Shown piece after piece: positions 1-13,075 of a stretch of DNA of 13,075 nt. The stretch spans positions 1 to 13,075 of the forward strand of contig QHVJ01000096.1 of NCBI GenBank assembly GCA_003222275.1, written 5' to 3'. Every line of letters starts with the position of its first letter. Positions within the stretch are counted from its first letter, which is position 1. A program made the position numbers and the translations under genes. This DNA is from Acidobacteriota bacterium. GTDB lineage: Bacteria > Acidobacteriota > Vicinamibacteria > Fen-336. The notes below the pieces were generated by a model. It searched no databases. It was given only the letters and a program-made list of their open reading frames with translations, and was not told where the DNA came from.

Positions 1-1
1 C

Positions 2-355
2 TCCTTCCTCGGCAAGCGTCCGAGTGTGGTCGAGGCGGGTATCGGCGTCCTGGCCTGCGTCCCCCTGCGCCACGAGGGCCGCATGCTGGGCCTGATCTAC
101 GTGGACGGGCGCCCGCGCAGAGACGGCTTCACTGAAGTGGACCTCGAGATCCTGGACTCCCTGCGGCAGCACGCCGCGATGCTGATCGCCGGCCTTCACC
201 TGGACCGCCGAATTCGCAATCTCTTCCCCAAGCCCGAGCCGGGTGCGGCCGCGGCTGAAAAGGGCCTGCTTCTTCAGCTGGAGCGGCGGCTGGGCAAATC
301 CGTGAAGCTTCGGCTGCCGGGGCCGGGGCCGGGGCCGGGGCCGGAAGAGCGCTGA
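2..355 (+). CDS. GAF-domain protein, C-terminal fragment; the ORF is open to the window start and ends in a PGPGPGPG tail
   Basis: The frame stays open from position 2. 'GRMLGLIYVDGRPRRDGFTEVDLEILDSL' resembles the end of a GAF domain. The true start lies upstream of the window. Confidence 0.55.
   Translation, partial: SFLGKRPSVVEAGIGVLACVPLRHEGRMLGLIYVDGRPRRDGFTEVDLEILDSLRQHAAMLIAGLHLDRRIRNLFPKPEPGAAAAEKGLLLQLERRLGKSVKLRLPGPGPGPGPEER
319..342. repeat. (GGGGCC)x4 hexanucleotide microsatellite inside the 3' end of the GAF-domain gene, encoding PGPGPGPG
   Basis: Four perfect tandem GGGGCC units are read directly at 319-342, flanked by partial units. Confidence 0.8.
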
Positions 356-356
356 G

Positions 357-1799: not shown

Positions 1800-1883
1800 A
1801 GGACGCCTCCTCGCGTCGGGCGGGATTGTAGTCCGGTAAGGACGCCCGCAGCGCGCGCTTAGATAAGGATAGCGGGCGGAGTA

Positions 1884-2606
1884 TTACCGGCGTGAGTCGG
1901 CCAGGGGCCGCCTCCAGAGCTCGTCCTGCGGATCGGATTCACGCTGCCGGCCGCCGGCGGGGCGGCGCGGCGGAATGCGCGTTCCGGAAATCCTGTCCCA
2001 TAGCCCGCTCGTCAACCCGAAACCCTGGGCCGCGCCCCGCGGGCTGTGGTGGTACCAGTGATGGAACCGGATGTACTGGAAGTAGCGGGACCGGAACCGG
2101 CAGAAGTGGACCGAGTAGTGGATCCACTCCTCGAGCACGTAGCTCTGGAGCAGGCCGGCGACCAGCACCGGCGCCTTGTAATAGGGCGTGAGGAGGAAGC
2201 TCACCGCGACGAAGAGCGCCGCGAAGGGGACCGAGTCGAGGTAGCCGTTGATGTACATCCCGTCCCACGGGCGCTGATGATGGTCGGCGTGCATCGTGTC
2301 GAAGAAGGTGTGCGCTCGATGCTTGAAGAATCCCGGCCCGTCCGGGAAGGGCCCGTGGAGGATGAACCGGTGGACGAGGTACTCGAGCAGCGTCCAGGCC
2401 ATCACCCCCAGGGCGAGATAGGCCAGGGCGTAGCCGGGATGGAAGACGAAGGCCGACACCAGCACGGTCGTCGAGTACGCGGTGAACAGGATCGTGACGG
2501 GATAGAAACGCCGCCGCGCCGTGCGGGCCTCGTCCGCGAGCACGATGCCCTCGGGGACAGGGAACAACGGATCAGGAATTCCACTGATCGATTTCAGGAG
2601 TGGCAT
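1884..2606 (-). CDS. fatty-acid hydroxylase / sterol-desaturase-family membrane di-iron protein; start ambiguous (ATG 2606, TTG 2663, or a GTG near 2543 with GAGGG upstream)
   Basis: Histidine-box motifs 'HRFILHG', 'HADHHQRP' and 'HFCRFRSRYFQYIRFHHWYHH' are present. The protein has several hydrophobic segments. It lies between the dehydratase and amine-oxidase genes on the same strand. Confidence 0.8.
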   Translation of the reverse strand: MPLLKSISGIPDPLFPVPEGIVLADEARTARRRFYPVTILFTAYSTTVLVSAFVFHPGYALAYLALGVMAWTLLEYLVHRFILHGPFPDGPGFFKHRAHTFFDTMHADHHQRPWDGMYINGYLDSVPFAALFVAVSFLLTPYYKAPVLVAGLLQSYVLEEWIHYSVHFCRFRSRYFQYIRFHHWYHHSPRGAAQGFGLTSGLWDRISGTRIPPRRPAGGRQRESDPQDELWRRPLADSRR

Positions 2607-2715
2607 AGAAGACTTTAAGCAGATCAGCAAAGGGCCCGCGACGCAAGCGGCAACGGGCGACAAAACCGTAGGCCGTCCCGCGCGGCGCGGACGTGCCTGG
2701 TTCCCCGCGGGCGCT

Positions 2716-4080
2716 TTAAGGCCGGATCACGGTCCCGTCGCGCCGCCGCGTACGGCCCCAGTCATAGTCGAAGTGCGGCGGGCCGGGGGGGAAGGGATAC
2801 CTCGCCGCCGCTTTCTCGTCCACGTCGATGCCGAGCCCCGGAGCCTCGCTCGCCCACAGGGCGCCGTCCCTGACCTCGGGGCAGCCGGGAAACACCTCCC
2901 GCGTCTTCCCTCCGAACCCCGAGCCCTCGTGAATGCCGAAGTTGTGGCTGGCCAGCTCGAGAGCGAGCTGTGCGGCGTGGCCGACGGGCGAGGTGTCGCC
3001 GGGCCCGTGCCAGGCCGTGCGCACGCCGAAGAACTCGCAGAGCGCCCCCAGCTTCCGCGCCATGCTCAAGCCGCCGATCTGCGACACGTGGGCGCGGATG
3101 AAGTCGATGAGGCGGCCGGTCACGAGTGGCACGTACTCGTGCTGGGTGTTGAACAGCTCCCCCATGGCGATGGGCACGCTCGTCTGCTGGCGCAGGATCC
3201 GGAAGTGCTCGTTCTGCTCGGGCGGCAGGGGGTCCTCGATGAAATAGGGACGGTAGCGCTCCAGCTCCTTGCACACCTGCACCGCCTCGGGAAGAGTCAC
3301 CCGCTCGTGCATGTCGTGCAGCAGCTCGACCTCGTCGCCCAGCGCGCCGCGGACGTGCTCGAACAGCTTCGGCAGCAGTCGCACGTACGGCCCCGACTCC
3401 CAGACGCGGGTGGGGTGCGTTGGCCCGTCCAGCTCGCCCTCAGGCGCGCTGGCGCCGCGGACGCCGTAGGTCGCCACGCCCGGAACCGCGACCTGGATGC
3501 GCACGTGGCGGTAGCCCTGCTCGACGGCCCGCCGGGCCTGGTCCGTCACCTCCTGGAAGTCGCGCCCGCTGGCGTGGAAGTAGAGGTCCGCGGCCATCCG
3601 GACCTTGCCTCCGAGGAGCTGGTAGACGGGCATGTTGGCGCGCTTGCCCTTGATGTCCCATAGCGCCTGGTCCACGCCGCTCATCGCGTTGAAGAGGACG
3701 GGCCCGTTCCGCCAGTAGGAGCTGACGTAGGAGGACTGCCAGATGTCCTCGATCTCGTCGGCGTTGCGGCCGAGGAGGAAGGGCTTGAGGTACTGCTCGA
3801 CCGCGGTCTGGACGACGTACGCGCGCTGGGTGAACGTCGCACAACCCAGGCCGTAGAGGCCCGGCTCGCTGGTCGTCACCTTCACCACCACCAGCCGGAT
3901 CCCATCGGGGGCGGTGAGGATCGTCTTGACGTCGGTGATCTTCACCGGCGGGAGGCCCCGGCGCGCGGGGACCGCCTCCTGGGGGAGGACGGAAGCCGAG
4001 AGCCTTCGGGGCGACAAGGCCGCGGCCGCACCAGCCACCGTCCCCCGCGATATCCACTGCAGGACGTCACGCCGATCCAT
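2716..4080 (-). CDS. enolase-superfamily protein of the D-mannonate dehydratase (ManD)/RspA/D-galactonate-dehydratase family, with an N-terminal Tat-like signal
   Basis: 'VKITDVKTILTAPDGIRLVVVKVTTSEPGLYGLGCATFTQRAYVV...IEDIWQSSYVSSYWRNGPVLFNAMSGVDQALWDIKGKRANMPVYQLLGG' closely follows the ManD family N-terminal and barrel pattern. The N-terminus is 'MDRRDVLQWISRGTVAGAAAAL'. A strong SD (GGGGGAGG) lies 7 nt upstream of the ATG at 4080. Confidence 0.85.
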   Translation of the reverse strand: MDRRDVLQWISRGTVAGAAAALSPRRLSASVLPQEAVPARRGLPPVKITDVKTILTAPDGIRLVVVKVTTSEPGLYGLGCATFTQRAYVVQTAVEQYLKPFLLGRNADEIEDIWQSSYVSSYWRNGPVLFNAMSGVDQALWDIKGKRANMPVYQLLGGKVRMAADLYFHASGRDFQEVTDQARRAVEQGYRHVRIQVAVPGVATYGVRGASAPEGELDGPTHPTRVWESGPYVRLLPKLFEHVRGALGDEVELLHDMHERVTLPEAVQVCKELERYRPYFIEDPLPPEQNEHFRILRQQTSVPIAMGELFNTQHEYVPLVTGRLIDFIRAHVSQIGGLSMARKLGALCEFFGVRTAWHGPGDTSPVGHAAQLALELASHNFGIHEGSGFGGKTREVFPGCPEVRDGALWASEAPGLGIDVDEKAAARYPFPPGPPHFDYDWGRTRRRDGTVIRP

Positions 4081-4135
4081 ACCAAGCCTCCCCCGGACGA
4101 GTCGTGCTTCGATCTTCGACGGCGAAGGTGCCAGG

Positions 4136-4621
4136 CTAATTCAGCTTCCGTTTGATCGCCGCTACGGCCTCGCGGGCGCCTTCGTAATCCGGACGGATCT
4201 CGAGCGCCCTCTGGAACTCTTCGAGGGCCTTCGAGAACATGTCGAGGGCTACGTAGGCGCGCCCGAGGTTGAGATGCGGGTAGTGCGGCGCCTCGTAGCG
4301 CCGGGCCCGGGTGGCCTTCTCGAGCCACGGGATAGCCTCGCGGTGCCGCCCCATCTCGATGAGGTAGGCGCCGATGTCGTTGTACGGGTTCCCGAACTCG
4401 GGGTCCACGCCGATCGCCCTCTGGCACTCGGCGATGGCGTCCTCGAGGCGTCCCAGGAACGAGTAGGTCCAGCCCAGGAACGTGTGGGCCTCGGCGGTGG
4501 GATAGGCCTCGGTCGATCGCTGGTAGAGATCGACGGCGAGGTCGAGATCTCCGCGCATCTGGGCGTCGAAGGCCTGCTGGAAGAGCCTGGCGGCGAGCTC
4601 GATGAAGTTGTCGGCGCCCAC
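4136..4621 (-). CDS. TPR-repeat protein (GTG start; the start is uncertain and could be an internal ATG)
   Basis: The ORF shows repeated TPR-like helical motifs (LG..Y...G..E.A......A....P). It lies 55 bp upstream of the dehydratase gene on the same strand. Confidence 0.65.
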   Translation of the reverse strand: MGADNFIELAARLFQQAFDAQMRGDLDLAVDLYQRSTEAYPTAEAHTFLGWTYSFLGRLEDAIAECQRAIGVDPEFGNPYNDIGAYLIEMGRHREAIPWLEKATRARRYEAPHYPHLNLGRAYVALDMFSKALEEFQRALEIRPDYEGAREAVAAIKRKLN

Positions 4622-4672
4622 GGCTCGATCATACTCCGCGCACCTCGACCAACGGGTGATGTACGACGGCCT

Positions 4673-4762
4673 AGTTGACGATTGCGGCGTAGACGAGTGT
4701 CGAGAAGCGTCCGAACAGCTTGTACTCGTCGAACGGAACGTGCTCCACGAGCAGGATCATGA
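4673..4762 (-). CDS. possible small ORF (29 aa, MILLVEHVPFDEYKLFGRFSTLVYAAIVN) with a strong AAGGAG ribosome-binding site; function unknown
   Basis: AAGGAG lies 9 nt upstream of the ATG, which is unusually good for this GC-rich context. The ORF is immediately upstream of the TPR gene on the same strand. Its tail 'LVYAAIV' faintly recalls the C-termini of RelE/YoeB-family toxins. It could also be a chance ORF. Confidence 0.2.
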
Positions 4763-4858
4763 CGATCCGCTCCTTAGAGTCGAGGCGGGCGAGGGTGGTG
4801 GCGGCGCCGTCCCAGGCTTCCTCTTGACAGATGTAGCCTCACGTGGCTGCATTGAGGC

Positions 4859-5146
4859 ATGAGGGCTGTAGGTGTTCGTGAGCTGAAGAACCGTCTGAGC
4901 GAGTATCTCCGCCTGGTGCGGAGCGGGGAGGAGATCCTCGTTACGGACCGCGGTGAGGTGATCGCGGAGTTGCGTCAGCCTATTCCACGCGTCGCACTGC
5001 TCTACCCGGCGCTGCTCGAGGCCTTTCGGCAAGGGCGGGCCCGGGTGGGACTACCCAACCGTCCCGGTCTGTATCCCACCCTGGGTCCCGTGATGCCGCC
5101 CGGCTCGGCGGCCAAGCTCCTCTATGAGGAGCGAGGCGAGCGCTGA
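4859..5146 (+). CDS. Phd/YefM (prevent-host-death)-family type II antitoxin, with a C-terminal extension; no toxin gene follows it
   Basis: The N-terminus 'MRAVGVRELKNRLSEYLRLVRSGEEILVTDRGEVIAELRQP' is the classic Phd/YefM pattern (..ELKN.LSE.L..V..GE...VT..G...A.L). Codon usage has lower GC than neighbouring genes. The downstream 131 bp contains no PIN/RelE-like ORF. Confidence 0.7.
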   Translation: MRAVGVRELKNRLSEYLRLVRSGEEILVTDRGEVIAELRQPIPRVALLYPALLEAFRQGRARVGLPNRPGLYPTLGPVMPPGSAAKLLYEERGER

Positions 5147-5277
5147 TTCTCTACGCGGAATCTCCTTCCGTGGCGGCCGAGCGGCGGTCGTTTCGCGGAT
5201 CTGGTGGAAAGTGCTGACGCTGCGCTTTCCATCACTCGGGCGACACGACGGGGCAAGAGGCAGGAGGCCATAGAATC

Positions 5278-6642
5278 ATGAATTTCAGCAAGAGACAGTT
5301 CATCAAGCGATGCGCGGCGATCCTGGGCGGATCAGCCATGTCACGCATGTTTGGTAGCGCATCAGTCGGCGCGACGTCGGAGAGCGCGCTTGCCAATTGG
5401 GCCGGCAATTACCGGTACAGTACCGACCGTCTGTACCGTGCCAGATCGCTGGAACAAGTTCAGGAGTTCGTCAAGCAGCACCGTCAACTAAAGGTCCTCG
5501 GCACGCGTCATTGCTTCAACGGGATCGCCGACAGCACCCACGATCTCCTCTCCCTCAGGGAGATGGATCAGGTGGTCGCGCTGGACCAGGGATCACGGAC
5601 GGTGACCGTCGAAGCGGGCATGAGCTATGGTCAGTTGTGCCCCTATCTCGATGAGAAGGGCTTTGCCCTGCACAACCTCGCCTCCTTGCCCCATATCTCC
5701 ATTGCGGGAGCGTGCGCCACGGCAACGCATGGCTCGGGCGTCAAGAATGGAAACCTGGCCACAGCAGTTTCCGCCATGGAGATCGTCACCGCTGGCGGCG
5801 AGGTGCTCAAGCTTTCCCGCGATACGGACGGCAGCACGTTTCAGGGGAGCGTCGTCAATCTCGGTGCTCTGGGCGTGGTCACCAAGGTGACGCTGGACGT
5901 TCAGCCCGCCTTCCTGATGCGCCAGGACGTCTATCTGAACCTCCCGACGGCGCAAGTAAAGGACCATTTCGAGGACATCGCTTCCGCCGGCTATAGCGTG
6001 AGCCTCTTCACCGATTGGCAGAAGGGGCGGATGAACGAAGTCTGGATAAAGCGTCGCGTCGACAAGGGGGTGACCCTGGCCGCCAAGCCGGAGTTCTATG
6101 GGGCAACACTCGCCACCAGGAACCTCCACCCGATCGTCGAGCTCTCCGCGGAAAACTGTACGGAACAGATGGGTGTCCCTGGCCCGTGGTATGAGCGATT
6201 GCCTCACTTCCGCATGGGTTTCACGCCAAGCAGCGGGAAGGAGTTGCAGTCCGAGTACTTCGTTCCCCGCCGGAACGCCGTCGAAGCCATTCTCGCGGTC
6301 GAGCGATTGCGCGACCACGTGAGCCCTCACTTGATGATTTCAGAACTGCGCACGATCGATGCGGACCAGCTGTGGATGAGTCCCTGTTACAACCAGCCCA
6401 GTCTCGCCATCCACTTCACGTGGAAACAGGACTGGGAGTCGGTCAGGAAGGTGCTACCGATGATCGAACGGGAACTGGCGCCCTTCAAGGTCCGACCGCA
6501 CTGGGGAAAGTTGTTCACGCTGGCCCCCGCGCAACTGCAACTGCGCTACGAGAGGTGTGGCGAATTCAAGCGGCTGGTGAAGCAGTATGACCCGCAGGAT
6601 AAGTTCCGCAACGAGTTCCTGGCCGCGAATCTCTACAGCTGA
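5278..6642 (+). CDS. FAD-linked oxidase of the vanillyl-alcohol-oxidase fold, D-arabinono-1,4-lactone oxidase/L-gulonolactone oxidase/alditol-oxidase subfamily, with a Tat-like (KR-variant) signal
   Basis: 'NWAGNYRYSTDRLYRARSLEQVQEFV...LKVLGTRHCFNGIADS' matches the FAD_binding_4 N-terminus of GULO/ALO/xylitol oxidases. The C-terminal 'HWGK' ALO-domain motif is present. The N-terminus is 'MNFSKRQFIKRCAAILGGSAMS...ALA'. AGGAGG sits upstream. GC content and codon usage (AGA, AAT, TTC) are clearly below the window average. Confidence 0.88.
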   Translation: MNFSKRQFIKRCAAILGGSAMSRMFGSASVGATSESALANWAGNYRYSTDRLYRARSLEQVQEFVKQHRQLKVLGTRHCFNGIADSTHDLLSLREMDQVVALDQGSRTVTVEAGMSYGQLCPYLDEKGFALHNLASLPHISIAGACATATHGSGVKNGNLATAVSAMEIVTAGGEVLKLSRDTDGSTFQGSVVNLGALGVVTKVTLDVQPAFLMRQDVYLNLPTAQVKDHFEDIASAGYSVSLFTDWQKGRMNEVWIKRRVDKGVTLAAKPEFYGATLATRNLHPIVELSAENCTEQMGVPGPWYERLPHFRMGFTPSSGKELQSEYFVPRRNAVEAILAVERLRDHVSPHLMISELRTIDADQLWMSPCYNQPSLAIHFTWKQDWESVRKVLPMIERELAPFKVRPHWGKLFTLAPAQLQLRYERCGEFKRLVKQYDPQDKFRNEFLAANLYS

Positions 6643-6797
6643 CCTTTGCCTTTCACCATCGCCGCAAACAAGCTGGCCATGCAACCGGAGGCCCCGCCGC
6701 TACCGGATTTGCGAGAAGCAGTCCGGAAAATCGACGGCCGCGTCCGTCAAATGGTCAGCAGGGCCAGAAAGCCGGCGGTGATAGGTGGTGAAGCTCC

Positions 6798-7718
6798 ATG
6801 TTCGTCACGTGTCGTTCTTGCGCCAAGCGCTTTTCGGATCGGGCGCCGGCCTGCCCCTTCTGTGGAGCGTCGCCACCGAAAGCGCGGCTGGACGCGCCCG
6901 GCAGCGTTGGGAGCGTCCCGACCGCTATCGGACGGCCTCCCGACCGCACAGACCGCGTCCGGCCTGATCCGAGTTTTCATCTCAGTGCCGGCAGCGTGCT
7001 GGCACGGACCTTCCGCCTGTGGGCGACAAACTTCCTCGCCCTGTCCGTCCTCGGAGCGCTTATCCACTCGCCAGCGATTGCGGCTTGGACACTGATCGCC
7101 GTCATTGGTGGCCATGACCCGGAACGACGGAACATCTTCAGCAGTGTCGCGAACCTACTCGGGCTGATCCTGAACCTGATACTGGAAGGAGCCGTCACCT
7201 ACTCCGTTTTCGGGCAGATCCGCGGTTCGCCTGTCCCTGTCGGAGTCGCGTTGCGCATCGGCCTGTCGCGCGCTAATGCTGTGCTGGGGGCAATTCTTCT
7301 CGTGGGATTAGTCATGCTTCCCGCCTGTGTCTGTTTGATCGTGCCCGGTCTCATCCTCGCAACGTGGTACTGGGTCGCGGTCCCGGTGGCGGTTATCGAG
7401 TCGCCCGGATCACGGGCCGCCCTCACGCGCAGCAAGGAGCTCACGCAGGGCGACCGGTGGCCGGTCTTCGCGTGCATGAGTTACCTCGGGATGATGCGAT
7501 TGGCGGGCTTCGCGGTCATCGTCGCCGGCGTACGCGCGGCGGGCGGGCCCGCAGTGTTCGAAAGGGTCACCGGTTCGCGAGGTGCTTCGATGCAACTGAC
7601 CCCTGGCGCAAAGGGCGTCGTGGAGCTTCTGACCATTCCGCTGCTTACGTTGGGAGTGATCGGGGCAACCGTCGCGTACCACGACCTCCGCTTCGGAAAG
7701 GAGGGAACTACCGCGTGA
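6798..7718 (+). CDS. membrane protein with an N-terminal zinc ribbon (CxxC...CxxC) followed by about six transmembrane segments; function unknown
   Basis: 'CRSCAKRFSDRAPACPFC' is followed by long hydrophobic stretches. The stop TGA at 7716-7718 overlaps the GTG of the next small ORF. Confidence 0.65.
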   Translation: MFVTCRSCAKRFSDRAPACPFCGASPPKARLDAPGSVGSVPTAIGRPPDRTDRVRPDPSFHLSAGSVLARTFRLWATNFLALSVLGALIHSPAIAAWTLIAVIGGHDPERRNIFSSVANLLGLILNLILEGAVTYSVFGQIRGSPVPVGVALRIGLSRANAVLGAILLVGLVMLPACVCLIVPGLILATWYWVAVPVAVIESPGSRAALTRSKELTQGDRWPVFACMSYLGMMRLAGFAVIVAGVRAAGGPAVFERVTGSRGASMQLTPGAKGVVELLTIPLLTLGVIGATVAYHDLRFGKEGTTA

Positions 7719-7945
7719 GCCTTGAACATCGTCCTGCTTGTGGCGCCCGGCGGATGTTGTTGGACGGTGAAGGTGGAGACGTCGACGTGACCGAGGGTCT
7801 GCGGTGGCTAAATGCGGCGGCAGTGCAGGACGAACCCCAGGCGCTCCGGCACCTTGGGTTACCCCGCGGGCGACACCCAAGAACTGCCCGGAAGCAAGTC
7901 ATTGAATCATTGGAGCCGGCGCTCGGGATTGAACCGAGGACCTGA
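7715..7945 (+). pseudogene. Sel1-like repeat gene remnant (one repeat); its 3' end reads into the tRNA-Thr fragment
   Basis: 'GEGGDVDVTEGLRWLNAAAVQDEPQALRHLG' fits the Sel1 repeat consensus. The ORF has a GTG start overlapping the upstream stop (GTGA). Its last ~11 codons are encoded by the tRNA-derived sequence. Confidence 0.25.
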
Positions 7946-7955
7946 TGATTACGAA
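7911..7955 (-). tRNA. 3' fragment of a tRNA-Thr(CGT) gene (anticodon loop to CCA); an att-type direct repeat left by an integrative element
   Basis: The minus-strand sequence is TTCGTAA-TCATC-AGGTC-CTCGG-TTCAATC-CCGAG-CGCCGGC-T-CCA. This has a canonical T-arm, acceptor 3' strand, discriminator and CCA. The sequence upstream has no matching 5' acceptor, D-arm or anticodon 5' strand. Confidence 0.6.
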
Positions 7956-8062
7956 TCCGTGTCTTCGTCGATGTTGCTAGAACGTCCTGCAACGTCTTGA
8001 AACCAGCAACCCCAGAAAGCCCTTGCCGTTAGCGGTTGAGATGTGGTTCGATCGCTCTCCTG

Positions 8063-8108
8063 CAGTTTCGACCAGTTTCGGTCGCGGTGTTACCCCGGTG
8101 TTACCCCG
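8063..8108 (+). repeat. short direct repeats upstream of the integrase start: 'cagtttcg' twice (8063-8080) and the tandem 11-mer 'gtgttaccccg' twice (8087-8108); candidate arm-type or regulatory sites
   Basis: Read directly from the sequence, 45-90 bp upstream of the integrase ATG at 8155. Confidence 0.5.
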
Positions 8109-8154
8109 CGGGAGTCGCTGATGTTCTTTCAGCGTGTCCGTGGTCGAGGTGTCG

Positions 8155-8650
8155 ATGCCGACGGTGAAGCTGACCGCTCGCACGGTCGAAGCTGCGCGTC
8201 CGCCTAGGTCGGGTCGCCTCGAACTGTCCGACGTTGACCTCCCAGGCTTCTGCATTCGCATTACACGCAACGATCGACGCACGGCCTGTCTTCTACCGTG
8301 TCGGTTCGCGATTGCGCCGTGCGACGCTCGGCACGCTTCCACCGCCTGGCGGATGCTCGTCAGCTCGCGCGCGAGGCGCTCCGCGATGCTGCGCTCGGGT
8401 ACGATCCCGCCTCGGCTAAACGCGAGGCTCGCGAAGCGTTGACGGTCGCTGTCCTGGTCAGGGACTACATCGAAGCCGATTCGGGTCGTCGCAGTTCCGC
8501 CACTAACGGCGACTACCGACGCACACTCAAGGCGGTCGTCGAGAGGTCACCCATCGGGCAGCAAGCGGCCGCTCAGGTGGCCCGCGGCGAGCTACGCGCC
8601 TTCCTTGAAGGCACTGCCCGCAAGACTCCGATCCGGGCAAATCGCGTCCG
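8155..8650 (+). pseudogene. int: tyrosine integrase (P4-like, DUF4102 arm-binding N-terminus) that is frameshifted and truncated, leaving only the N-terminal ~160 aa in two frames
   Basis: The first frame gives 'MPTVKLTARTVEAARPPRSGRLELSDVDLPGFCIRITRNDRRT' (DUF4102 pattern). Near 8280-8330 it shifts to a second frame giving 'LADARQLAREALRDAALGYDPASAKREAREA...YRRTLKAVVERSPIGQQAAAQVARGELRAFLEGTARKTPIRANRVRQ' (integrase SAM-like N-domain). No catalytic domain (R..HxxR..Y) follows. Confidence 0.7.
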
Positions 8651-8909
8651 GCAGCCGAAGCCATGCCCGCTGCGTGACGAGTCCAACATTGCGAGCCGCC
8701 AAGTCGTAGAGAGGACCTCGAAAGCCCTTCCATCGGACACCTTCCAGCAGAAAGACCCTGAAGCGCCGAAAGTCCTCCGAGAGGGCCTCGTAGAAAGCAG
8801 CCGAGCCGATATGGAACATCGGATAGAGCGTGATCCGCAGATCGTGGTCCGGATGGCGCATCGCCGTACGGCCGACGGCCGCGAGGTCGCCTCGCACGAA
8901 CTCGACCAT
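8592..8909 (-). CDS. hypothetical protein or fragment (105 aa), with weak resemblance to the TraB/GumN/Tiki superfamily N-terminus
   Basis: 'DLRITLYPMFHIGSAAFYEALSEDFRRFRVFLLEGV' resembles the GxxH...E motifs of that superfamily. It is far shorter than family members and lies in the lower-GC accessory region. Confidence 0.3.
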   Translation of the reverse strand: MVEFVRGDLAAVGRTAMRHPDHDLRITLYPMFHIGSAAFYEALSEDFRRFRVFLLEGVRWKGFRGPLYDLAARNVGLVTQRAWLRLPDAICPDRSLAGSAFKEGA

Positions 8910-8912
8910 TGC

Positions 8913-9107
8913 CTAGACCCTTCGGCGTCCGACTCCTGCGTGCTGGCTGCCCTCGTGAGCTCGACGCCGACGGCCATCCACCAACCGCAGTCGGGTTTCG
9001 ATGTCGGCGGTCTCCTCAGTCGACAGGCCAAGAAAGTCCTGCGTCGTCCCGAACCACCAACCCCGCCTTTCGAGCCTCTTTTTCTTCGCCCTATGCATCC
9101 TTGCCAT
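8913..9107 (-). CDS. hypothetical small basic protein (64 aa)
   Basis: The ORF lies immediately upstream of the 8592-8909 ORF on the same strand, with a 3-nt gap. 'WFGTTQDFLGLSTEETADIETRLRLV' is non-repetitive and possibly HTH-like. There is no confident family match. Confidence 0.3.
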   Translation of the reverse strand: MARMHRAKKKRLERRGWWFGTTQDFLGLSTEETADIETRLRLVDGRRRRAHEGSQHAGVGRRRV

Positions 9108-9206
9108 CCCTCTCGTCGGCTTCGGCGGTCCTTCGCGCCCGCTCTCTGCGCTGCAACGTTCGCTTACATTACCACCGTGCCGGTACGCGTTAGAGGCTAC
9201 TGAATC

Positions 9207-9536
9207 TCAGCCTTCAATCCTCGAAGATCGCAGGCGCGCGAGCTCTTCAACACTCCGTTCGGCCTCCGTGCCAGCCTCTTCCCATTCGTCGGCGCCGACA
9301 CTTCGAAGCTCAGCGAGAAGCTCGTCCTCCGGGACCTTGACGTCGGTTCGGCTCGCCCAATGGGCCAGCAGCCGCAGTATCCCGAAGGTCGGTGGCCCAA
9401 GCATGTCGATGAGGATTCGGAGGCCTTCCAGGGACACGGAGCGGAAGGCGGGGGTATACCGCTTTTTAGCTTGCAGTACCCCGATGTTGGATCGGTACGC
9501 CTCCCGTGAGCACGCCAACGTAATATGCTCACACAT
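9207..9536 (-). CDS. hypothetical protein (109 aa)
   Basis: This is a non-low-complexity ORF in the lower-GC region. The overlapping plus-strand ORF is Ser/Arg-rich and looks spurious. There is no recognisable SD. Confidence 0.25.
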   Translation of the reverse strand: MCEHITLACSREAYRSNIGVLQAKKRYTPAFRSVSLEGLRILIDMLGPPTFGILRLLAHWASRTDVKVPEDELLAELRSVGADEWEEAGTEAERSVEELARLRSSRIEG

Positions 9537-9809
9537 ACAGGCGTAAGTGGAAGGAAGCTCACGACCACCATGGCGCCACGCGGGCTCTCACAACAGCGAG
9601 CACGCGGGGGGCGTGAGGAACCGTAGCCCCACCAGCAAGCGCCCGGGGCATTTCGAGGACGGTGACGCCGGCGTGTGACTCGCGGTCGCCGGAGGCGACG
9701 TCCTGGCGCCGGTGCTGTTCAACCGCATGACCTTGGAGCGCGTCGGTCCTCTCAATAGCGAGAGACGTTCCGAGCGTGTGTCTCGTTTCTGGGAGGGGCA
9801 CCAACAGCA

Positions 9810-9842
9810 GGAGGGCGGCGGCCATCGCCGCCGCCGCCCTCC
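9810..9842 (-). terminator. GC-rich hairpin (13-bp stem: ggagggcggcggc / gccgccgccctcc) 5 nt downstream of the SPFH gene stop; candidate intrinsic terminator
   Basis: A perfect inverted repeat is read directly. It is followed on the minus strand by a modestly T-rich stretch (TGCTGTTGGTG). Confidence 0.45.
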
Positions 9843-9847
9843 ACGCT

Positions 9848-10957
9848 TTACAGCAGCTTGACCACCCGATCGGCGAGGCCCTTCTCGCCGAGGACGACCG
9901 TCAGGTTGGCCTTCTCCGACACCTTCTCCAGCACCTCGAGCTCACGCAGACGCATCAGGGTGGGGCTCGACTCGAGGATCTTGGCCGTGTTGGCCTGCGA
10001 CCGCATGGCGGCGGTCTCCTCGCGGCGCGTGATGAGGGCGGCTTCGGCCGCCTTCTTGGCCTCGGTCACCTTGTTCATGAGGTCCTTCATCTCGCCGGGC
10101 AGGATGACGTCGCGGATGCCGAGCGCCACGACGTCGATGCCGAAGCCGGCGACTCGGACCCGCACGATACCGTCCAGCTCGCGGGCGAGGGCGTCCTTGT
10201 CGCTCAGGAGAACGTCCAGCTCACGCGTGCCGATGACAGCACGCAGCGCGAGCTGCGCCTCGCGGTAGAGAGCCTGGCGGTAGTCCTCTACCGTGGTGAC
10301 GGCCTTCAGGGGATCGGCGACCTTGAAGGTCACCACTGCATTCATGCGCAGCGTGACCTTGTCGGCAGTCATGATCTCCTGGCCGGCGATGTCCACGACC
10401 TGCTCGCGCAGGTCCACGTCGAGGATGCGGGCCTTGGCAACGCCCTTCCAGAAGGCGTGGGCGCCGGGGGCCAGCGTGGCCTCGTGGCGGCCGTCCTTGA
10501 AGAAGAGTCCGGCGTGGCCGGCCTCCATCGTCACCGCCTCCAGAAGCGGCGCGGCGCCGCGGGCCTCGGCGATAACGGCGAGGTCCTTGTGGTCGAAGCG
10601 CACCTCACGGGCATCGAAGACCGCGACCCGCACGTCGTGGAAAACCGTCCACAGCGCGTAAAGGCCCGGCTTCAGGACCATCTCCACGCGGCCGTCGATC
10701 CACACGACGGCGCGCTCGTAGTCCTTGAGGTCGACCACGCGCGCCTCTCCGCCCAGCGCGCCCGACTTGGCGATGACGTCCAGGTCGGCGTGCTCCAGCC
10801 ACGCGTCACGCACCGACACGACGTCCACGCGGATCTTGCACAGAAGATCCCACATGAAATGACGACCGGGACCGCGGACGTCCTTGAACTGGCGGTCCTT
10901 GAAGAGCAGACCGCGCTCGTGCTCACGAACCTTGAACCAACGCAGGAAAACCCACAA
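9848..10957 (-). CDS. SPFH/band-7 (stomatin/prohibitin-like, slipin-type) protein; proposed TTG start at 10957 with an AGGGGGTG SD
   Basis: 'RWFKVREHERGLLFKDRQFKDVRGPGRHFMW...LREQVVDIAGQEIMTADKVTLRMNAVVTFKVADPLKAV...' matches the SPFH domain. A coiled-coil-like C-terminus 'KVTEAKKAAEAALITRREETAAMRSQANTAKIL' follows. The longer N-terminal extension in the ORF track is Arg/Pro-rich and probably not translated. Confidence 0.85.
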   Translation of the reverse strand: MWVFLRWFKVREHERGLLFKDRQFKDVRGPGRHFMWDLLCKIRVDVVSVRDAWLEHADLDVIAKSGALGGEARVVDLKDYERAVVWIDGRVEMVLKPGLYALWTVFHDVRVAVFDAREVRFDHKDLAVIAEARGAAPLLEAVTMEAGHAGLFFKDGRHEATLAPGAHAFWKGVAKARILDVDLREQVVDIAGQEIMTADKVTLRMNAVVTFKVADPLKAVTTVEDYRQALYREAQLALRAVIGTRELDVLLSDKDALARELDGIVRVRVAGFGIDVVALGIRDVILPGEMKDLMNKVTEAKKAAEAALITRREETAAMRSQANTAKILESSPTLMRLRELEVLEKVSEKANLTVVLGEKGLADRVVKLL

Positions 10958-11219
10958 GGGACACCCCCTTTCCAATGAACGACGCCAAACGACAAGAATG
11001 GCCTCCGGGGGACGGTTCGCCGGCCGCCACGCCTCCAGCGTGGAGCGCGACTTGAGTCCCCGCCGACTTCGCTTGTTACGGGGCGTTTTGGCGGGGCCGG
11101 TATCCGCGCGCTGCAAGACGCTCTCGCGCGATGCCGGGCGTGGCCAACACGGGCCACGTCCGGCCGGCGGATCACGGCGTCCGTCCCCCGAAGACCGCAC
11201 TCACGACTCACCATTCACG

Positions 11220-11291
11220 AGTTGGCACAGGAGTCGAACCTGTGACAGCCGAGTTTCGAGCTCGGTGCTCTATCCACTGAGCTAACCCTGA
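11220..11291 (-). tRNA. tRNA-like pseudogene with a canonical D-arm, an anticodon arm (loop CTCGAAA, anticodon CGA) and a T-arm, but a non-pairing acceptor stem (5' TCAGGGT vs 3' GCCAACT) and no encoded CCA
   Basis: On the minus strand the D-arm is 'TAGCTCAGTGGATAGAGCA'. The anticodon arm is CCGAG-CTCGAAA-CTCGG. The T-arm is ACAGG-TTCGACT-CCTGT. The anticodon CGA combined with a short variable loop does not fit any standard isoacceptor. Confidence 0.45.
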
Positions 11292-11414
11292 CACCTCCCT
11301 TCGTTAGAACCCGTGCGCGGAACGCGCGCCGCCGATCACAAGGTGAGGCGACGCGCACCGCCGGCCCGGGGGTATCAGCCCTTTCGCGGCCTCGTGGCCG
11401 CCTGAACTCCAAAA

Positions 11415-11488
11415 TGGAGGTAGGTCGGGGAGTCGAACCCCGCTAACTGGCTTTGCAGGCCAGCGCCTGACCGCTCGGCCAACCCACC
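11415..11488 (-). tRNA. tRNA-Cys(GCA)
   Basis: The acceptor is GGTGGGT/ACCTACC (one G-U pair). The anticodon arm is CTGGC-CTGCAAA-GCCAG. The T-arm is CGGGG-TTCGACT-CCCCG. Discriminator T and CCA are encoded. Length is 74 nt. Confidence 0.85.
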
Positions 11489-11943
11489 GGCAACTTCCGC
11501 TGCATGCGAACCACGTGGTCCGCTGCGTGCGAGGCGGCCCAGCTCTCCGGCTTGATCAGCGCCTTGAAGCCCTGGCCGACCACGAGGCCGACGAGCTCCT
11601 TGACGTAGGCGCTGCTCTTGTGAGCCACGACGGGGTTGGCGTCGATGTGCACCGTCAGCTCCCCCTTTACGATCGGCGAGAAGTGGAGTCCGAGGTCCAC
11701 CGACTTCCAGACCTCCTTCAGGAGCCGCTCGCGCAGGGAGGTGATCCGCGGCACTGTCTCCTTGCGATACGCGACGCGACCGCCCTTCCTCGGCGTGAGG
11801 ATCACCACAACCGTCACGAACTGGGTCAGGCGCCCCGTCTGGAGAGAGTCCGTCCCGACGTGGACCGCCTGGCCGTCCCTGGTGGCATCGCTGACAAACT
11901 GGAGGATGTCGGGGATCTTGACCTCATTCAGCGTCTTCCACAT
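11443..11943 (-). CDS. YkuK/DUF458-family RNase-H-like protein; its 3' end overlaps tRNA-Cys by ~46 nt
   Basis: 'VHVGTDSLQTGRLTQFVTVVVILTPRKGG...LTVHIDANP...ALIKPESWAASHAADHVVR' follows the YkuK pattern (..GTDSQ...FVTVIVI). The last ~15 codons are encoded by the tRNA-Cys gene. Confidence 0.65.
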   Translation of the reverse strand: MWKTLNEVKIPDILQFVSDATRDGQAVHVGTDSLQTGRLTQFVTVVVILTPRKGGRVAYRKETVPRITSLRERLLKEVWKSVDLGLHFSPIVKGELTVHIDANPVVAHKSSAYVKELVGLVVGQGFKALIKPESWAASHAADHVVRMQRKLPVGWPSGQALACKAS

Positions 11944-11954
11944 CGTGACCTCGC

Positions 11955-12330
11955 TAGAGAATGGAGGAGGGCCCCGTAGCGATCGCGCAGCGATCGCGAT
12001 TGATCAGGGGCGCCGAATTCAATTCGGCGCCCCGGAAGCCTCGAACCCTGTCGACTGGTTTTCGGGACCAGTCTCTATCCGACAGAATGCCCTCCTGAAA
12101 TTGGCGGAGAGGGCCTTAGCGATCGCGAAGCGATCGCGATTGATGAGGGGCGCCGAATTCAATTCGGCGCCCCGGAAGCCTCGAACCCTGTCGACTGGTT
12201 TTCGGGACCAGTCTCTATCCGACAGAATGCCCTCCTGAAATTGGCGGAGAGGGCCTTAGCGATCGCGAAGCGATCGCGATTGATGAGGAGCGCCGAATTC
12301 ATTTCGGTGCTCGGAAGATTCGAACTCTCG
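11955..12330. repeat. 140-bp tandem repeat, ~2.6 copies; unit starts fall at 11978, 12118 and 12258, and the third copy diverges
   Basis: Each unit contains 'agcgatcgcgNagcgatcgcgattgat' (two GCGATCGC palindromes). It then has a perfect 13-bp-stem hairpin 'ggggcgccgaattcaattcggcgcccc'. It ends with tRNA-like sequence (GGATAGAG, the stem-loop GACTGGT-CCCGAAA-ACCAGTC, GGGTTCGAGG). Copies 1 and 2 are nearly identical. Confidence 0.85.
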
Positions 12331-12395
12331 TGGCCGGATGGCCTCGGCACATTAGCGGTGTGCTGGGCTCCCCACTCGCCCTTTCCTCTCCGTGA

Positions 12396-12470
12396 TGGTG
12401 GCCGACCAGGGACTCGAACCCTGAAGGTCCCGCTTAGAAGGCGGGGAAGCGTCCATCGCTCGCGTCGGCC
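12396..12470 (-). tRNA. tRNA-Arg(TCT)
   Basis: The acceptor is GGCCGAC/GTCGGCC. The anticodon arm is CCCGC-CTTCTAA-GCGGG. The T-arm is CAGGG-TTCGAGT-CCCTG. Discriminator A and CCA are encoded. Positions 8-9 are GC (unusual) and the D-stem has one G-U pair. Confidence 0.7.
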
Positions 12471-12472
12471 AA

Positions 12473-12560
12473 TGGTCCCCGCTGGAGGAGTTCAACCTCC
12501 GTCTCTCCGTCCGGTCCTCCTGCTTACGGGCAGGTGTGCTGCCAGTAACACGTCATCGAC
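12473..12560 (-). tRNA. long-variable-arm tRNA-like pseudogene (Tyr GTA-like anticodon region, 6-nt anticodon loop, no pairing 5' acceptor)
   Basis: The T-arm is GGAGG-TTGAACT-CCTCC, followed by AGCGGGG-A-CCA. The stem is CCTGC/GCAGG with loop CCGTAA. The 5' end (GTCGATG) cannot pair with the 3' acceptor. Confidence 0.3.
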
Positions 12561-12561
12561 T

Positions 12562-12635
12562 TGGTCCAGGCTCGAGGACTCGAACCTCGATTCTCCGGTA
12601 ATCGGCCGGAAGTCCTGCCGTTGGACGAAGCCTGG
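12562..12635 (-). tRNA. tRNA with a full cloverleaf and an atypical anticodon loop CCGATTA (anticodon GAT, C33, U37); Ile(GAT)-like or atypical
   Basis: The acceptor is CCAGGCT/AGCCTGG. The D-arm is GTCC-AACGGCA-GGAC. The anticodon stem is TCCGG/CCGGA. The T-arm is CGAGG-TTCGAGT-CCTCG. Discriminator A and CCA are encoded. Confidence 0.5.
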
Positions 12636-12637
12636 AT

Positions 12638-12712
12638 TGGTGCCAGCGGTGGGAGTCGAACCCACCTCGTCCCGATCAAAAGGCGGGCACGCGGCCGCTG
12701 CGTCACGCTGGC
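12638..12712 (-). tRNA. tRNA-Lys(TTT)-like with a C31-U39 mismatch in the anticodon stem and G37; a TTG reading is possible if the loop is taken as 9 nt
   Basis: The acceptor is GCCAGCG/CGCTGGC. The D-stem is ACGC/GCGT. The anticodon region is CCCGC-CTTTTGA-TCGGG. The T-arm is GTGGG-TTCGACT-CCCAC. Discriminator A and CCA are encoded. Confidence 0.5.
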
Positions 12713-12720
12713 AATGAAGC

Positions 12721-12859
12721 TGGCTGTAGGGCCGGGATTCGAACCCGGATCTTTCGGAGCGTCCGAAGTGAATTCGTCCGCTCCTCATCAATCACGATCG
12801 CTTCGCGATCGTTAGGGCCGGTTAACAGCCGGACTTGTTGCCGTTGCCACCACCCTACA
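12721..12859 (-). tRNA. 139-nt tRNA-Asn(GTT)-like gene with a ~65-nt insertion (GCGATCGC palindromes plus a 29-nt hairpin) at the variable-loop position
   Basis: On the minus strand the 5' acceptor TGTAGGG pairs 7/7 with the 3' acceptor CCCTACA, followed by G and CCA. The anticodon loop is CTGTTAA (the canonical Asn loop). The T-arm is CCGGG-TTCGAAT-CCCGG. The D-stem is imperfect. The inserted module is an inverted copy of the module in the 140-bp tandem repeats. Confidence 0.5.
12756..12815. repeat. inverted copy of the hairpin + GCGATCGC module (hairpin 12756-12784 'ggagcgtccgaagtgaattcgtccgctcc'; palindrome part 12785-12815); it lies inside the Asn-like tRNA gene
   Basis: The reverse complement of 12749-12825 aligns with the start of repeat copy 3 (12247-12320), including 'gatgaggagcg.cgaattca.ttcgg'. 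Confidence 0.7.
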
Positions 12860-12878
12860 AGCGCACGACCTGTGAGGC

Positions 12879-13016
12879 TGGCTGGCAGACGTGGATTCGC
12901 TGTCTCGACGCTCTGCGGAGCGGAGCGTCGAGGCACGGCGGATCACGCGGAGCGTGATCGCCCACCACGATTGGCGGGTTCAGAGCCCGCGGTCCTGCCG
13001 TTGGACGATCTGCCAA
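12879..13016 (-). tRNA. 138-nt tRNA-Gln(CTG)-like gene with a ~65-nt insertion (two hairpins, 12904-12931 and 12941-12959) in the variable region and a degenerate T-arm
   Basis: On the minus strand the 5' acceptor TGGCAGA pairs 7/7 with TCTGCCA, followed by G and CCA (U1-A72 and G73 are typical of Gln). The D-arm is GTCC-AACGGCA-GGAC. The anticodon arm is GCGGG-CTCTGAA-CCCGC, a canonical loop. The T-loop region is AGCGAAT, with CGAAT conserved but no pairing stem. Confidence 0.45.
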
Positions 13017-13075
13017 TGGTCGGGTCGGGAGGAGTCGAACCTCCATGCACCTGCGCCCGAGGCAGGTGGGCTACC
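13017..13075 (-). tRNA. tRNA-Pro(CGG), 3' portion; the 5' part lies beyond the window end
   Basis: On the minus strand the anticodon arm is CCTGC-CTCGGGC-GCAGG (anticodon CGG, G37). The T-arm is GGAGG-TTCGACT-CCTCC. The acceptor 3' strand is CGACCCG, followed by A and CCA. Confidence 0.7.

Follow-up and report, generated by a model that had tools for sequence, protein, structure and literature searches.

Layout of the tRNA gene locus

The stretch of DNA analysed here (13,075 nt of contig QHVJ01000096.1 from an Acidobacteriota bacterium of the Vicinamibacteria; in the following, the window) ends in a dense cluster of tRNA genes that lies next to a ykuK-like gene and an SPFH gene. We find 12 tRNA or tRNA-derived units within 1.86 kb (window positions 11219-13075), all on the minus strand and with intergenic spacers of only 1 to 19 nt within the array, compared to the at least nine co-oriented units, several of them spaced by 2 to 19 nt, that an earlier sequence-only reading had counted. 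The units were called with ARAGORN at default and relaxed thresholds, the Rfam tRNA model, reading of the strand, and alignment to relatives, that is, to related chromosomal, metagenome, and viral contigs whose loci are labeled L001 to L030. On the minus strand, the default settings of ARAGORN yield Cys-GCA (11415-11488), Arg-TCT (12396-12470), Ile-GAT (12562-12635), and Lys-TTT (12638-12712), and Gln-CTG is gained when the threshold is lowered. The Rfam model additionally matches Pro-CGG (13020-13075, cut by the window end) and 11223-11287 (45.8 bits, with deletions at acceptor positions). Strand reading, which shows T-arm-like GGTTCGA motifs every ~75 to 140 nt, and alignment reveal another six units of tRNA origin, namely Gln, Asn, a Thr/Arg chimera, Ser(GCU), and two of Ser(CGA) type; the intron mode of ARAGORN returned only spurious fusions of adjacent genes. 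CCA is encoded in all array units.

Read along the minus strand, the array enters the window with tRNA-Pro(CGG) (13017-13075; Rfam 31.3 bits), whose 5' end lies beyond the window and which is identical to the full-length gene of L023 and one T-loop base apart from those of L005, L007, and L009. It is followed by tRNA-Gln(CUG) (12879-13015; U1-A72, G73) with a 64-nt two-hairpin insert at 12900-12963, and by tRNA-Asn(GUU) (12721-12859), in which the variable loop is broken at 12755-12817 by an inverted two-hairpin element of the GCGATCGC type. Next come tRNA-Lys(UUU) (12638-12712; Rfam 50.2 bits), an Ile(GAU)-type tRNA with a C1-G72 pair (12562-12635; Rfam 49.3 bits), a deletion chimera of Thr(CGU) and Arg(CCU) parts (12473-12560) recognized by alignment to L005, L007, and L009, and a tRNA-Arg(UCU) (12396-12470) with orthologues in L007, L009, and L023. 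The array then continues with tRNA-Ser(GCU) (12242-12391), which compared to intact relatives carries element copy A (12254-12315) at the 3' side of its T-arm. Of the two Ser(CGA)-type units behind it, copy 1 (12102-12235) is composed of a 5' part, the hybrid element B (12114-12180), and a Ser(GCU)-type 3' end (12102-12113) and belongs to a 140-nt tandem repeat (family D1), and copy 2 (11962-12095) contains element copy C (11973-12040) and has the 3' end GCCCTCCTCCA. The ykuK-like gene (11443-11943) and tRNA-Cys(GCA) (11415-11488; U73, Rfam 57 bits) close the series. As the sequence-only reading had it, tRNA-Cys and tRNA-Arg are canonical; tRNA-Pro, which that reading also called canonical, matches the Rfam tRNA model. 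Downstream follow a structured RNA segment (11288-11381), a tRNA-like module (11219-11287), and the SPFH/Band-7 gene (9848-10957, 369 aa, PF01145), all on the same strand.

The window holds the 3' third of a long, ordered array

The YkuK-like protein has more than 900 homologues, the 120 best of which are 80% to 100% identical, and the contigs of most of them are very short and end near the array. Longer contigs and a scan of species-representative genomes yielded 12 further loci, all from Acidobacteriota or Vicinamibacteria. Four of these (L005, L007, L008, and L009) carry 17 to 26 co-oriented tRNA genes called by ARAGORN directly upstream of ykuK and tRNA-Cys after it, with a total array size of 21 to 27 genes in constant order: Trp, Tyr, Gly, Gly, (Thr), Lys, Leu, Leu, Leu, Asp, Ala, (Glu), Met, Val, His, Pro(CGG), Gln, Asn, Lys(UUU), Ile(GAU), Thr(CGU), Phe, Thr, Glu, Arg (3 to 4 genes), an odd unit of 92 nt whose loop contains UAU, Ser(GCU), Ser(CGA), ykuK, and Cys. 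Alignment places the window base for base on the final third of this series. A 4.4-kb contig from the window's own population (L023) spans the whole array, with 14 units intact for ARAGORN and ~9 disrupted ones in 2.7 kb, and L005 has 26 tRNAs in 3.25 kb; both surpass the density by which long arrays of tRNA genes ("L-arrays") are defined (at least 20 tRNA genes at 2 or more per kb). The location of all units on one strand, the 1- to 19-nt spacers, and a sporadic distribution that includes viral contigs likewise agree with this class. The window thus contains the 3' third of an L-array of phage type.

Among relatives the array is either present or missing upstream of ykuK. No tRNA genes accompany ykuK at L006, L010 to L012, L015, and L016, and a single Leu(CAG) does at L013, L014, L017, and L019; at L011 and L016, the conserved leader that otherwise precedes the array directly abuts ykuK. 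The Leu(GAG) and Leu(CAG) genes are short-arm tRNAs of 76 to 78 nt, and pair 3-70 of tRNA-Gln is G-C, A-U, or C-G among the chromosomal arrays, a compensatory stem change.

The odd unit near the end of the array is class II-like and 90 to 94 nt long, with a C1-G72 pair, the loop CUUAUAC (UAU), and the noncanonical T-loop GGCRGCA. It is found at 9707-9798 of L007, at ~9700-9795 of L005, in L009, and in the viral loci L025 (5994-6087) and L026 (6209-6298), and shows compensatory changes in the anticodon, variable, and T stems across chromosomal and viral arrays. The window's population lacks it.

The same array on viral contigs

A scan of IMG/VR, whose contigs were inspected in part, revealed six viral contigs encoding YkuK relatives of 51% to 66% identity. 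Four of them (L024 to L027) carry 26 to 34 tRNAs in the order of the chromosomal array together with a ykuK gene, 61% to 66% identical, at the matching place. The viral ykuK is followed by Ser, Cys, and Gln(UUG) genes, with tRNA-Ser genes between ykuK and tRNA-Cys in L025 to L027. ParB-like, PD-(D/E)XK, Sak4/ParA-like, endonuclease VII, and polyvalent-protein genes flank these arrays, and for L024 and L026 phage structural or replication genes adjoin in the same locus. Compared to the chromosomal loci, G+C content is lower and the SPFH gene and the structured RNA are missing. The likeness to tRNA arrays of mobile DNA and phages that had been suggested from the window is therefore borne out by the shared order in L005, L007, L008, L009, and the viral L024 to L027, and the remaining ykuK loci have no array or a single tRNA. 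One ordered array is common to phage contigs and several Vicinamibacteria chromosomes, and the sequences would be compatible with transfer in either direction.

BLAST of the L005 array against GenBank phages gave only weak matches to actinophage tRNA pairs, some across gene junctions, and a distant-mode search against PLSDB plasmids gave nothing. DUF458 genes also occur in large tRNA-rich phages, namely KVP40, beside a DUF2828/DUF7788 protein gene, and Pseudomonas phage Astolliot, 1.2 kb from tRNA genes. In L024, an open reading frame (ORF) with an RF-1 domain (ArfB-like) and ykuK stand back to back between tRNA-Ser and tRNA-Cys, and L029 has an additional transfer-messenger RNA (tmRNA).

Several neighbours of these genes are of RNA-repair or translation-rescue type: the RF-1-domain ORF of L024 (7644-7994), a vWA-domain ORF of L026 (7231-7986), the tmRNA of L029 (13336-13706), the DUF2828/DUF7788 "RNA-binding protein" of KVP40 (L030, 3523-4959), and a C-terminal fragment of RtcB upstream of the array in L005 (5872-6300).

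Damage to array units in the window's population

Canonical orthologues were found in relatives for every disrupted unit of the window. In tRNA-Gln, the 64-nt insert sits exactly inside the T-loop between T54 and C56 (CGTGGT before the insert and CGAATCCACG after it), where the orthologues in L005, L007, L008, and L009 read CGTGGTTCGAxTCCACG without interruption; the stems around the insert are perfect in the window, and the insert, which is also present in L023, folds into two hairpins (-24.1 kcal/mol, z -4.96). The 63-nt interruption of the tRNA-Asn variable loop is missing from its orthologues, relative to which the window gene also has one D-stem mismatch (G10.A25). For the serine genes, the repeats are resolved by L001 to L004, contigs of other samples whose YkuK is identical to that of the window. 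An intact Ser(GCU) gene ending in GAGAGTTCGAATCTCTCCCTCTCCGCCA is present in L001 to L004 and in L023, whereas the window gene has, besides element copy A, a loss of two bases from the 3' T-stem strand. In L001, a 6-nt spacer separates the intact Ser(GCU) from a Ser(CGA)-type gene that is likewise intact, measures 73 nt, and immediately precedes ykuK; L002 to L004 have one hairpin module of ~66 nt in the T-arm of Ser(CGA), where L023 carries an element as well. Compared to L001 to L004, the window thus shows an extra module in Ser(GCU) plus an additional 140-nt unit. In its second Ser(CGA) copy, element C replaces the 3' strand of a T-stem that is uninterrupted in the L008 orthologue.

Three 140-nt tandem repeats (11957-12376), with the hairpin part recurring inverted at 12779-12819, account for the repeated hairpin module noticed earlier. 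Element B is an exact recombinant whose first 35 nt equal copy C and whose last 35 nt equal copy A, so that the 140-nt repeat is what would be expected from unequal crossover between two element copies. The unit at 12473-12560 had been taken for a Tyr-like tRNA with a 6-nt loop; the loop (CCGTAA) is real, but alignment identifies it as the Thr(CGU) loop minus U33, in the 5' part of a Thr gene that is joined to the 3' part of Arg(CCU) (GGTTGAACTCCTCCAGCGGGGACCA). L003 and L023 share this fusion, and L002 retains the series Arg(CCG)-Arg(ACG)-Arg(CCU).

These comparisons show that the array is eroding in this population by element insertion, deletion fusion, unequal crossover, and substitutions in tRNA-Lys, and at least nine units are disrupted at a locus that is nevertheless retained. 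Because element presence varies among contigs with identical YkuK and canonical orthologues exist for the disrupted units, most of the atypical units are products of recent damage, that is, of insertions, a deletion chimera, and a duplication. The sequence-only reading had described them as atypical or pseudo-tRNAs, which was accurate for the letters of the window, but most are recent lesions of genes that are canonical at the same positions in relatives.

A two-hairpin element and unrelated inserts in tRNA loops

The element in the Asn, Ser(GCU), and Ser(CGA) units is 62 to 68 nt long, forms two hairpins, and behaves as mobile: its presence or absence varies between contigs of one population, and on L023 it also occupies the Ala D-loop and the acceptor/D junction of Val. 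The Asn copy belongs to the same family in inverted orientation. The 25-mer core of the element occurs 4 times in the window against 0 expected, and all known copies (4 in the window and 4 on L023) lie within tRNA genes of the array. A scan of metagenome contigs with the 25-nt core matched two contigs, both with this array, by an exact pattern that would miss diverged copies; exact-pattern scans of viral contigs for the element and the Pro-Gln junction had no match. The element ends in CCCTA... and ...CCG, which are not inverted repeats, is used in both orientations relative to transcription, and comes with target deletions of 0 to 7 nt and no clear target sequence beyond a shared GG|A.

All tested inserts fold into two hairpins with z between -3.3 and -6 (-4.53 for the Asn copy and -3.33 for copy A), and the hairpin stems of the element show compensatory changes. 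Overall the inserts measure 59 to 68 nt and have one two-hairpin layout in common across at least three families of unrelated sequence. All eight sit in a loop or at a junction, with T-loops in five cases, and none is mid-stem.

Unrelated two-hairpin inserts between GGGTT and CGA of the T-loop are also seen in Arg(UCU) of L005 (~9560-9680) and Asp(GUC) of L009 (~4300-4460).

Neither terminal inverted repeats nor a target-site duplication were detected when filled and empty sites were compared, which sets the inserts apart from miniature inverted-repeat transposable elements (MITEs), and no transposase for the element was identified. A spliceable tRNA intron of the archaeal bulge-helix-bulge type or of group I, which would have a fixed orientation and whose removal would restore the tRNA, does not match either, although no formal search for bulge-helix-bulge motifs was made: removal restores Gln and nearly restores Asn, and the Ser(CGA) and Ser(GCU) copies miss part of the T-stem. 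Rfam at a permissive threshold gave nothing credible for the hairpin repeats. With no terminal repeats or duplications, deletions of 0 to 7 nt, and both orientations in use, we read the inserts as small nonautonomous mobile DNA elements rather than as RNA-level introns. MITEs, repetitive extragenic palindromic (REP) elements and bacterial interspersed mosaic elements (BIMEs), and palindrome-associated elements derived from IS200/IS605 insertion sequences are all small nonautonomous mobile elements and the obvious classes for comparison. Similar to these, the inserts are noncoding, multi-copy, hairpin-forming, and variable in the population at a size of 59 to 68 nt, but they lack terminal inverted repeats and are known only from tRNA genes of this array.

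A cyanobacterial origin, which the HIP1-like GCGATCGC palindromes might have indicated, was rejected: all six copies lie inside the hairpin element, and the source as well as all relatives belong to the Acidobacteriota.

Anticodon loops: Inherited and private deviations

The unusual C33/U37 loop CCGATTA described from the window is present in its Ile(GAU) unit, and the loop (CCGAUUA) is identical in all six chromosomal arrays as well as in L029. It is therefore ancestral to all chromosomal copies; the viral L024 to L026 read CTGATTA, with U37 kept. Different from this, the C31.U39 mismatch and G37 of the Lys(UUU) unit, also correctly described earlier, are private to the window's population (shared by L003 and L023), and L005 and all viral orthologues have the loop CTTTTAA on a paired stem. 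Loops without U33 amount to 23 of 102 in chromosomal arrays and 9 of 162 in viral arrays (Fisher p = 7e-5), and this excess agrees better with a relaxation of constraint following capture by chromosomes than with evasion of nucleases.

YkuK and the proposed transcription of the array

The ORF at 11443-11943 matches PF04308 with E = 1.9e-29, above the gathering score, and is thus a member of the DUF458/YkuK family, for which the literature offers only the prediction of membership in the RNase H1 clade (PMC3985635). An AlphaFold 2 model (AF2; mean predicted local distance difference test [pLDDT] 65, core 70 to 87) has an RNase H-like beta3-alpha-beta-alpha-beta-alpha core; D32, E77, D101, and D142 are invariant, and E72 is nearly so. 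Sequence relatives among solved structures were not found, NCBIfam has no YkuK model, and PADLOC matched neither YkuK nor SPFH nor their neighbours. A DUF458/YkuK gene is located in or beside the array at every array-bearing locus, on chromosomes between tRNA-Ser and tRNA-Cys, and tRNA-Cys follows it directly or past a short spacer in L005, L008, and L009 as well as in the viral L024 to L027, with tRNA-Ser genes intervening in L025 to L027. Two readings from the window, an overlap with ykuK and an adjacent SPFH gene, were both right: the ORF enters tRNA-Cys by 46 nt, with a conserved core that ends near 11506 and a tail that is read-through, and the SPFH gene lies downstream.

The ykuK start codon lies 18 nt past the CCA of Ser(CGA), and tRNAs flank the ORF within 0 to 18 nt. 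This tight packing suggests that excision of tRNAs from one precursor sets the mRNA ends. In this scheme, the array, ykuK, tRNA-Cys, and probably the SPFH leader would be transcribed as one precursor from a promoter outside the window, and tRNA-processing enzymes would cut out the tRNAs and thereby release ykuK mRNA. This would resemble the tRNA punctuation model of mitochondrial transcripts, given that the ykuK ORF is closely flanked by tRNAs and that L024 even has two ORFs between tRNAs.

In chromosomal and phage loci alike (window 11443-11506, minus strand; L026 7995-8540; L024 8450/8451), the ykuK reading frame is often not closed by a stop codon ahead of the following tRNA and reads into it, and its mRNA would be nonstop if that tRNA were excised from the precursor.

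Promoter-like sites were not detected in window positions 10800-13075, where the sole terminator-like site is at the SPFH start and none lies within the array. Upstream of the arrays, outside the window, we predict a sigma-70 promoter close to consensus (TTGACA-17-TACATT). Behind it lies a conserved leader of ~205 nt ending in a predicted 13-bp intrinsic terminator, which is ~85 nt away from the first tRNA. This leader, for which a permissive Rfam search gave no match, could be a small RNA or an attenuator gating expression of the array. The array tRNAs would be extra copies that mostly read G/C-ending codons and might back up translation when the tRNA pool of the host is impaired, by analogy to other L-arrays and to phage arrays.

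The leader is found at L023 (2790-3058, minus strand), L005 (7172-7412), L007 (7465-7707), L008 (4280-4521), L009 (3269-3511), L011 (5697-5938), and L016 (5735-5927), and adjoins ykuK where there is no array.

A tRNA-like module in the leader of the SPFH gene

The SPFH gene was called as a 369-aa gene on L001 and L002, and positions 10958-11218 of the window are a conserved untranslated leader; a 450-aa ORF call was discarded as an over-extension into this leader. SPFH genes lie downstream of ykuK at L005, L007 to L009, L013 to L016, L018, and L019 (partially at L015), with only a fragment at L011 and no match at L006, L010, L012, and L017. Positions 11219-11381 are conserved at every ykuK-SPFH locus, including those without an array. 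The part between tRNA-Cys and the tRNA-like module (11288-11381) is a long hairpin closed by an outer helix, for which RNAalifold across 12 loci finds 32 pairs, with compensatory double changes in 6. Rfam at a permissive threshold had no match for this segment, and a search for YrlA/bacterial Y RNA (RF02553) returned nothing at E = 10 over 11219-11381; the only YrlA match in the window (17.6 bits, E 2.2) lies over the Pro and Gln genes.

The module at 11219-11287 is the unit with a CGA anticodon and unpaired acceptor that had been counted as part of the array. Its acceptor defect is confirmed (3 pairs only), but it does not belong to the array. It consists of a 3-bp acceptor stub and D, anticodon, and T arms without CCA, unlike a canonical tRNA with its 7-bp acceptor stem and 3' CCA/discriminator, and 9 of its 17 consensus pairs show compensatory changes across 10 loci. 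Its anticodon loop is hypervariable (CTCGAAA here, CTGATAA in L002, L004, and L019, and CCGAAAA in L005) and differs at almost every locus, even within the window's population. Since the module occurs in array-less relatives and shows compensatory changes, it is a selected RNA module of the SPFH leader (~260 nt plus) and not a decayed array tRNA. It may serve as a processing signal, as a protein-binding mimic, or in another role. Its place before the SPFH leader recalls tRNA-like processing signals such as mascRNA; its 3-bp acceptor stub makes recognition by RNase P uncertain.

Alternative explanations

We give a probability of roughly 80% to the account in which the window contains the 3' third of an L-array that is transcribed as one precursor and eroding in this population, next to a separate tRNA-like module in the SPFH leader. 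Three points weigh against it: the 140-nt duplication is found on the window contig only, compensatory stem changes show long past selection on the array, and co-transcription and function of the array are what we infer from sequence. The second point implies that "decay" applies to this population more than to the family.

Alternatively, the atypical units might be functional specialised RNAs, with C33/U37/G37 loops that resist nucleases or act as decoys and inserts that are tolerated as extra arms or excised, possibly by YkuK and an RtcB-type ligase. Phage tRNAs with anticodon-loop changes that evade anticodon nucleases have indeed been reported (PMC10264068). The fixation of CCGAUUA in six chromosomal arrays with U37 also in phage versions, the confinement of eight out of eight inserts to loops or junctions, and the perfect stems around the Gln insert would fit this idea. 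The RtcB fragment upstream of the L005 array and the Ro/vWA-like and RF-1-like neighbours of phage YkuK genes likewise point to RNA repair. However, the element occurs in both orientations relative to transcription and replaces 7 nt of the 3' T-stem strand in Ser(CGA) and 2 nt in Ser(GCU), so that an intact tRNA cannot be regenerated from either. The D-stem mismatch gained in Asn, the variable presence of inserts inside one population, and the private nature of the Lys variant also speak for damage, and loops without U33 show a fourfold higher frequency in chromosomal arrays compared to those of phages, the opposite of what evasion predicts. We therefore regard functional specialisation as unlikely. 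Its boldest form, in which the inserts would be intervening sequences that move, home specifically into the tRNA loops of such phage-type arrays, and are removed from the precursor RNA with YkuK and an RtcB-type ligase as processing and repair machinery, is a long shot, though if true they would be a bacterial and phage counterpart of the noncanonical tRNA introns of archaea. A weaker version is likelier, in which YkuK/DUF458 would serve tRNA arrays as a dedicated nuclease for pre-tRNA or for RNA repair.

It seems improbable to us that the array is instead the main, vertically inherited tRNA operon of the organism and was taken from such hosts by phages. Ordinary chromosomal contexts on contigs of 0.4 to 3.4 Mb, coverage of about 20 amino acids, the long-term purifying selection seen in compensatory stem changes, and the conservation of ykuK, structured RNA, and SPFH around the array would all suit a housekeeping operon. 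Against this, close relatives have ykuK and SPFH but no array, with the upstream leader abutting ykuK in L011 and L016, and the locus is kept although at least nine of its units are disrupted. Moreover, the anticodon set is incomplete for full decoding, the short-arm Leu(GAG) and Leu(CAG) resemble those annotated in actinophage arrays, and surveys call long arrays horizontally acquired and Acidobacteria free of them (PMC8421152).

That the odd units, chiefly the 140-nt repeats, are assembly artefacts of strain mixtures in the metagenome is hardly credible even though most contigs with this ykuK are short and broken near the array and the triple repeat is on the window contig only. Independent contigs (L002 to L004, L022, and L023), which stem from different samples and assemblers, show the Gln, Asn, and Ser(CGA) insertions and the Thr/Arg chimera with every base the same. 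In addition, the hairpin-A sequence of copy A is unique, and copies A and C agree exactly over at most 16 nt, too short for a graph loop at usual k values.

Relation to known tRNA arrays

Long tRNA arrays with pseudogenes, embedded genes, and horizontal spread are already known (PMC4758250, PMC8421152, and PMC5966550), as are phage tRNA arrays and their proposed role against host defences (PMC10264068). No long array had been reported from Acidobacteria, which were listed among the phyla with only short accretive arrays (PMC8421152) and are not mentioned by Tran et al. The present array resembles that of the PCC 7120 delta plasmid (PMC8421152) and the "tRNA array units" described for Acidithiobacillus and for Firmicutes (PMC4758250) in its at least 20 co-oriented tRNAs, more than 2 per kb, and very short spacers. 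Shared with them are also the patchy distribution among relatives, the pseudogenes, insertions, duplications, and deletions inside, the embedded or linked protein genes including RNA-repair rtcB, and an apparent regulatory region upstream. It differs from them in its Acidobacteriota host, in having no sequence match to plasmid arrays, in an embedded DUF458/YkuK gene instead of an HNH homing endonuclease, and in the downstream coupling to a structured RNA, a tRNA-like module, and an SPFH gene. Similarities to the tRNA clusters of cluster C1 mycobacteriophages and Streptomyces phages (PMC10264068 and PMC5966550) and of the T4-like KVP40 comprise the ordered array on IMG/VR contigs, short-arm Leu tRNAs (actinophages), DUF458 (KVP40 and Astolliot), and some noncanonical anticodon loops. 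Compared to these clusters, the window copy is chromosomal with no phage structural genes near and only an integrase fragment and a tRNA 3' fragment ~3 kb away, and deviant loops occur more often in the chromosomal copies than in the viral ones.

These findings extend long tRNA arrays with horizontal spread to a phylum that is among the most abundant in soil, and the identical gene order ties chromosomal copies to uncultivated phages. New leads are the link to DUF458, the inserts restricted to tRNA loops, and two conserved RNA structures without an Rfam family, that is, the terminator-ended leader before the array and the structured RNA with its tRNA-like module before SPFH. The presence of DUF458/YkuK within tRNA arrays of phages and chromosomes, beside genes of ribosome-rescue and RNA-repair type, is the first genomic-context clue for this RNase H-fold family, which has been without known function since 2005. 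The window's population further provides a natural snapshot of a dispensable tRNA array decaying through hairpin insertions, unequal crossover, and gene fusion.

Neighbouring genes and possible traces of integration

Further proteins encoded in the window are oxidoreductases, an enolase-superfamily protein, and a TPR protein besides SPFH; its phage-type content is limited to an N-terminal fragment of an Arm-type integrase, and no phage structural or replication genes adjoin the array, which sets the locus apart from a prophage. G+C content drops near position 4500, from ~0.69-0.71 (1-4500) to ~0.61-0.65 (4500-13075), compatible with a foreign origin of the lower-GC part, which carries the integrase fragment, SPFH, ykuK, and the array. 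A lone 3' half of a tRNA-Thr(CGU)-like gene with anticodon arm, T-arm, and CCA lies at 7911-7960 on the minus strand, ~340 nt from an ORF at 8298-9203 on the plus strand whose N-terminus weakly matches the DNA-binding domain of Arm-type integrases, and both together may be the attachment-site and integrase remnant of an integrated element.

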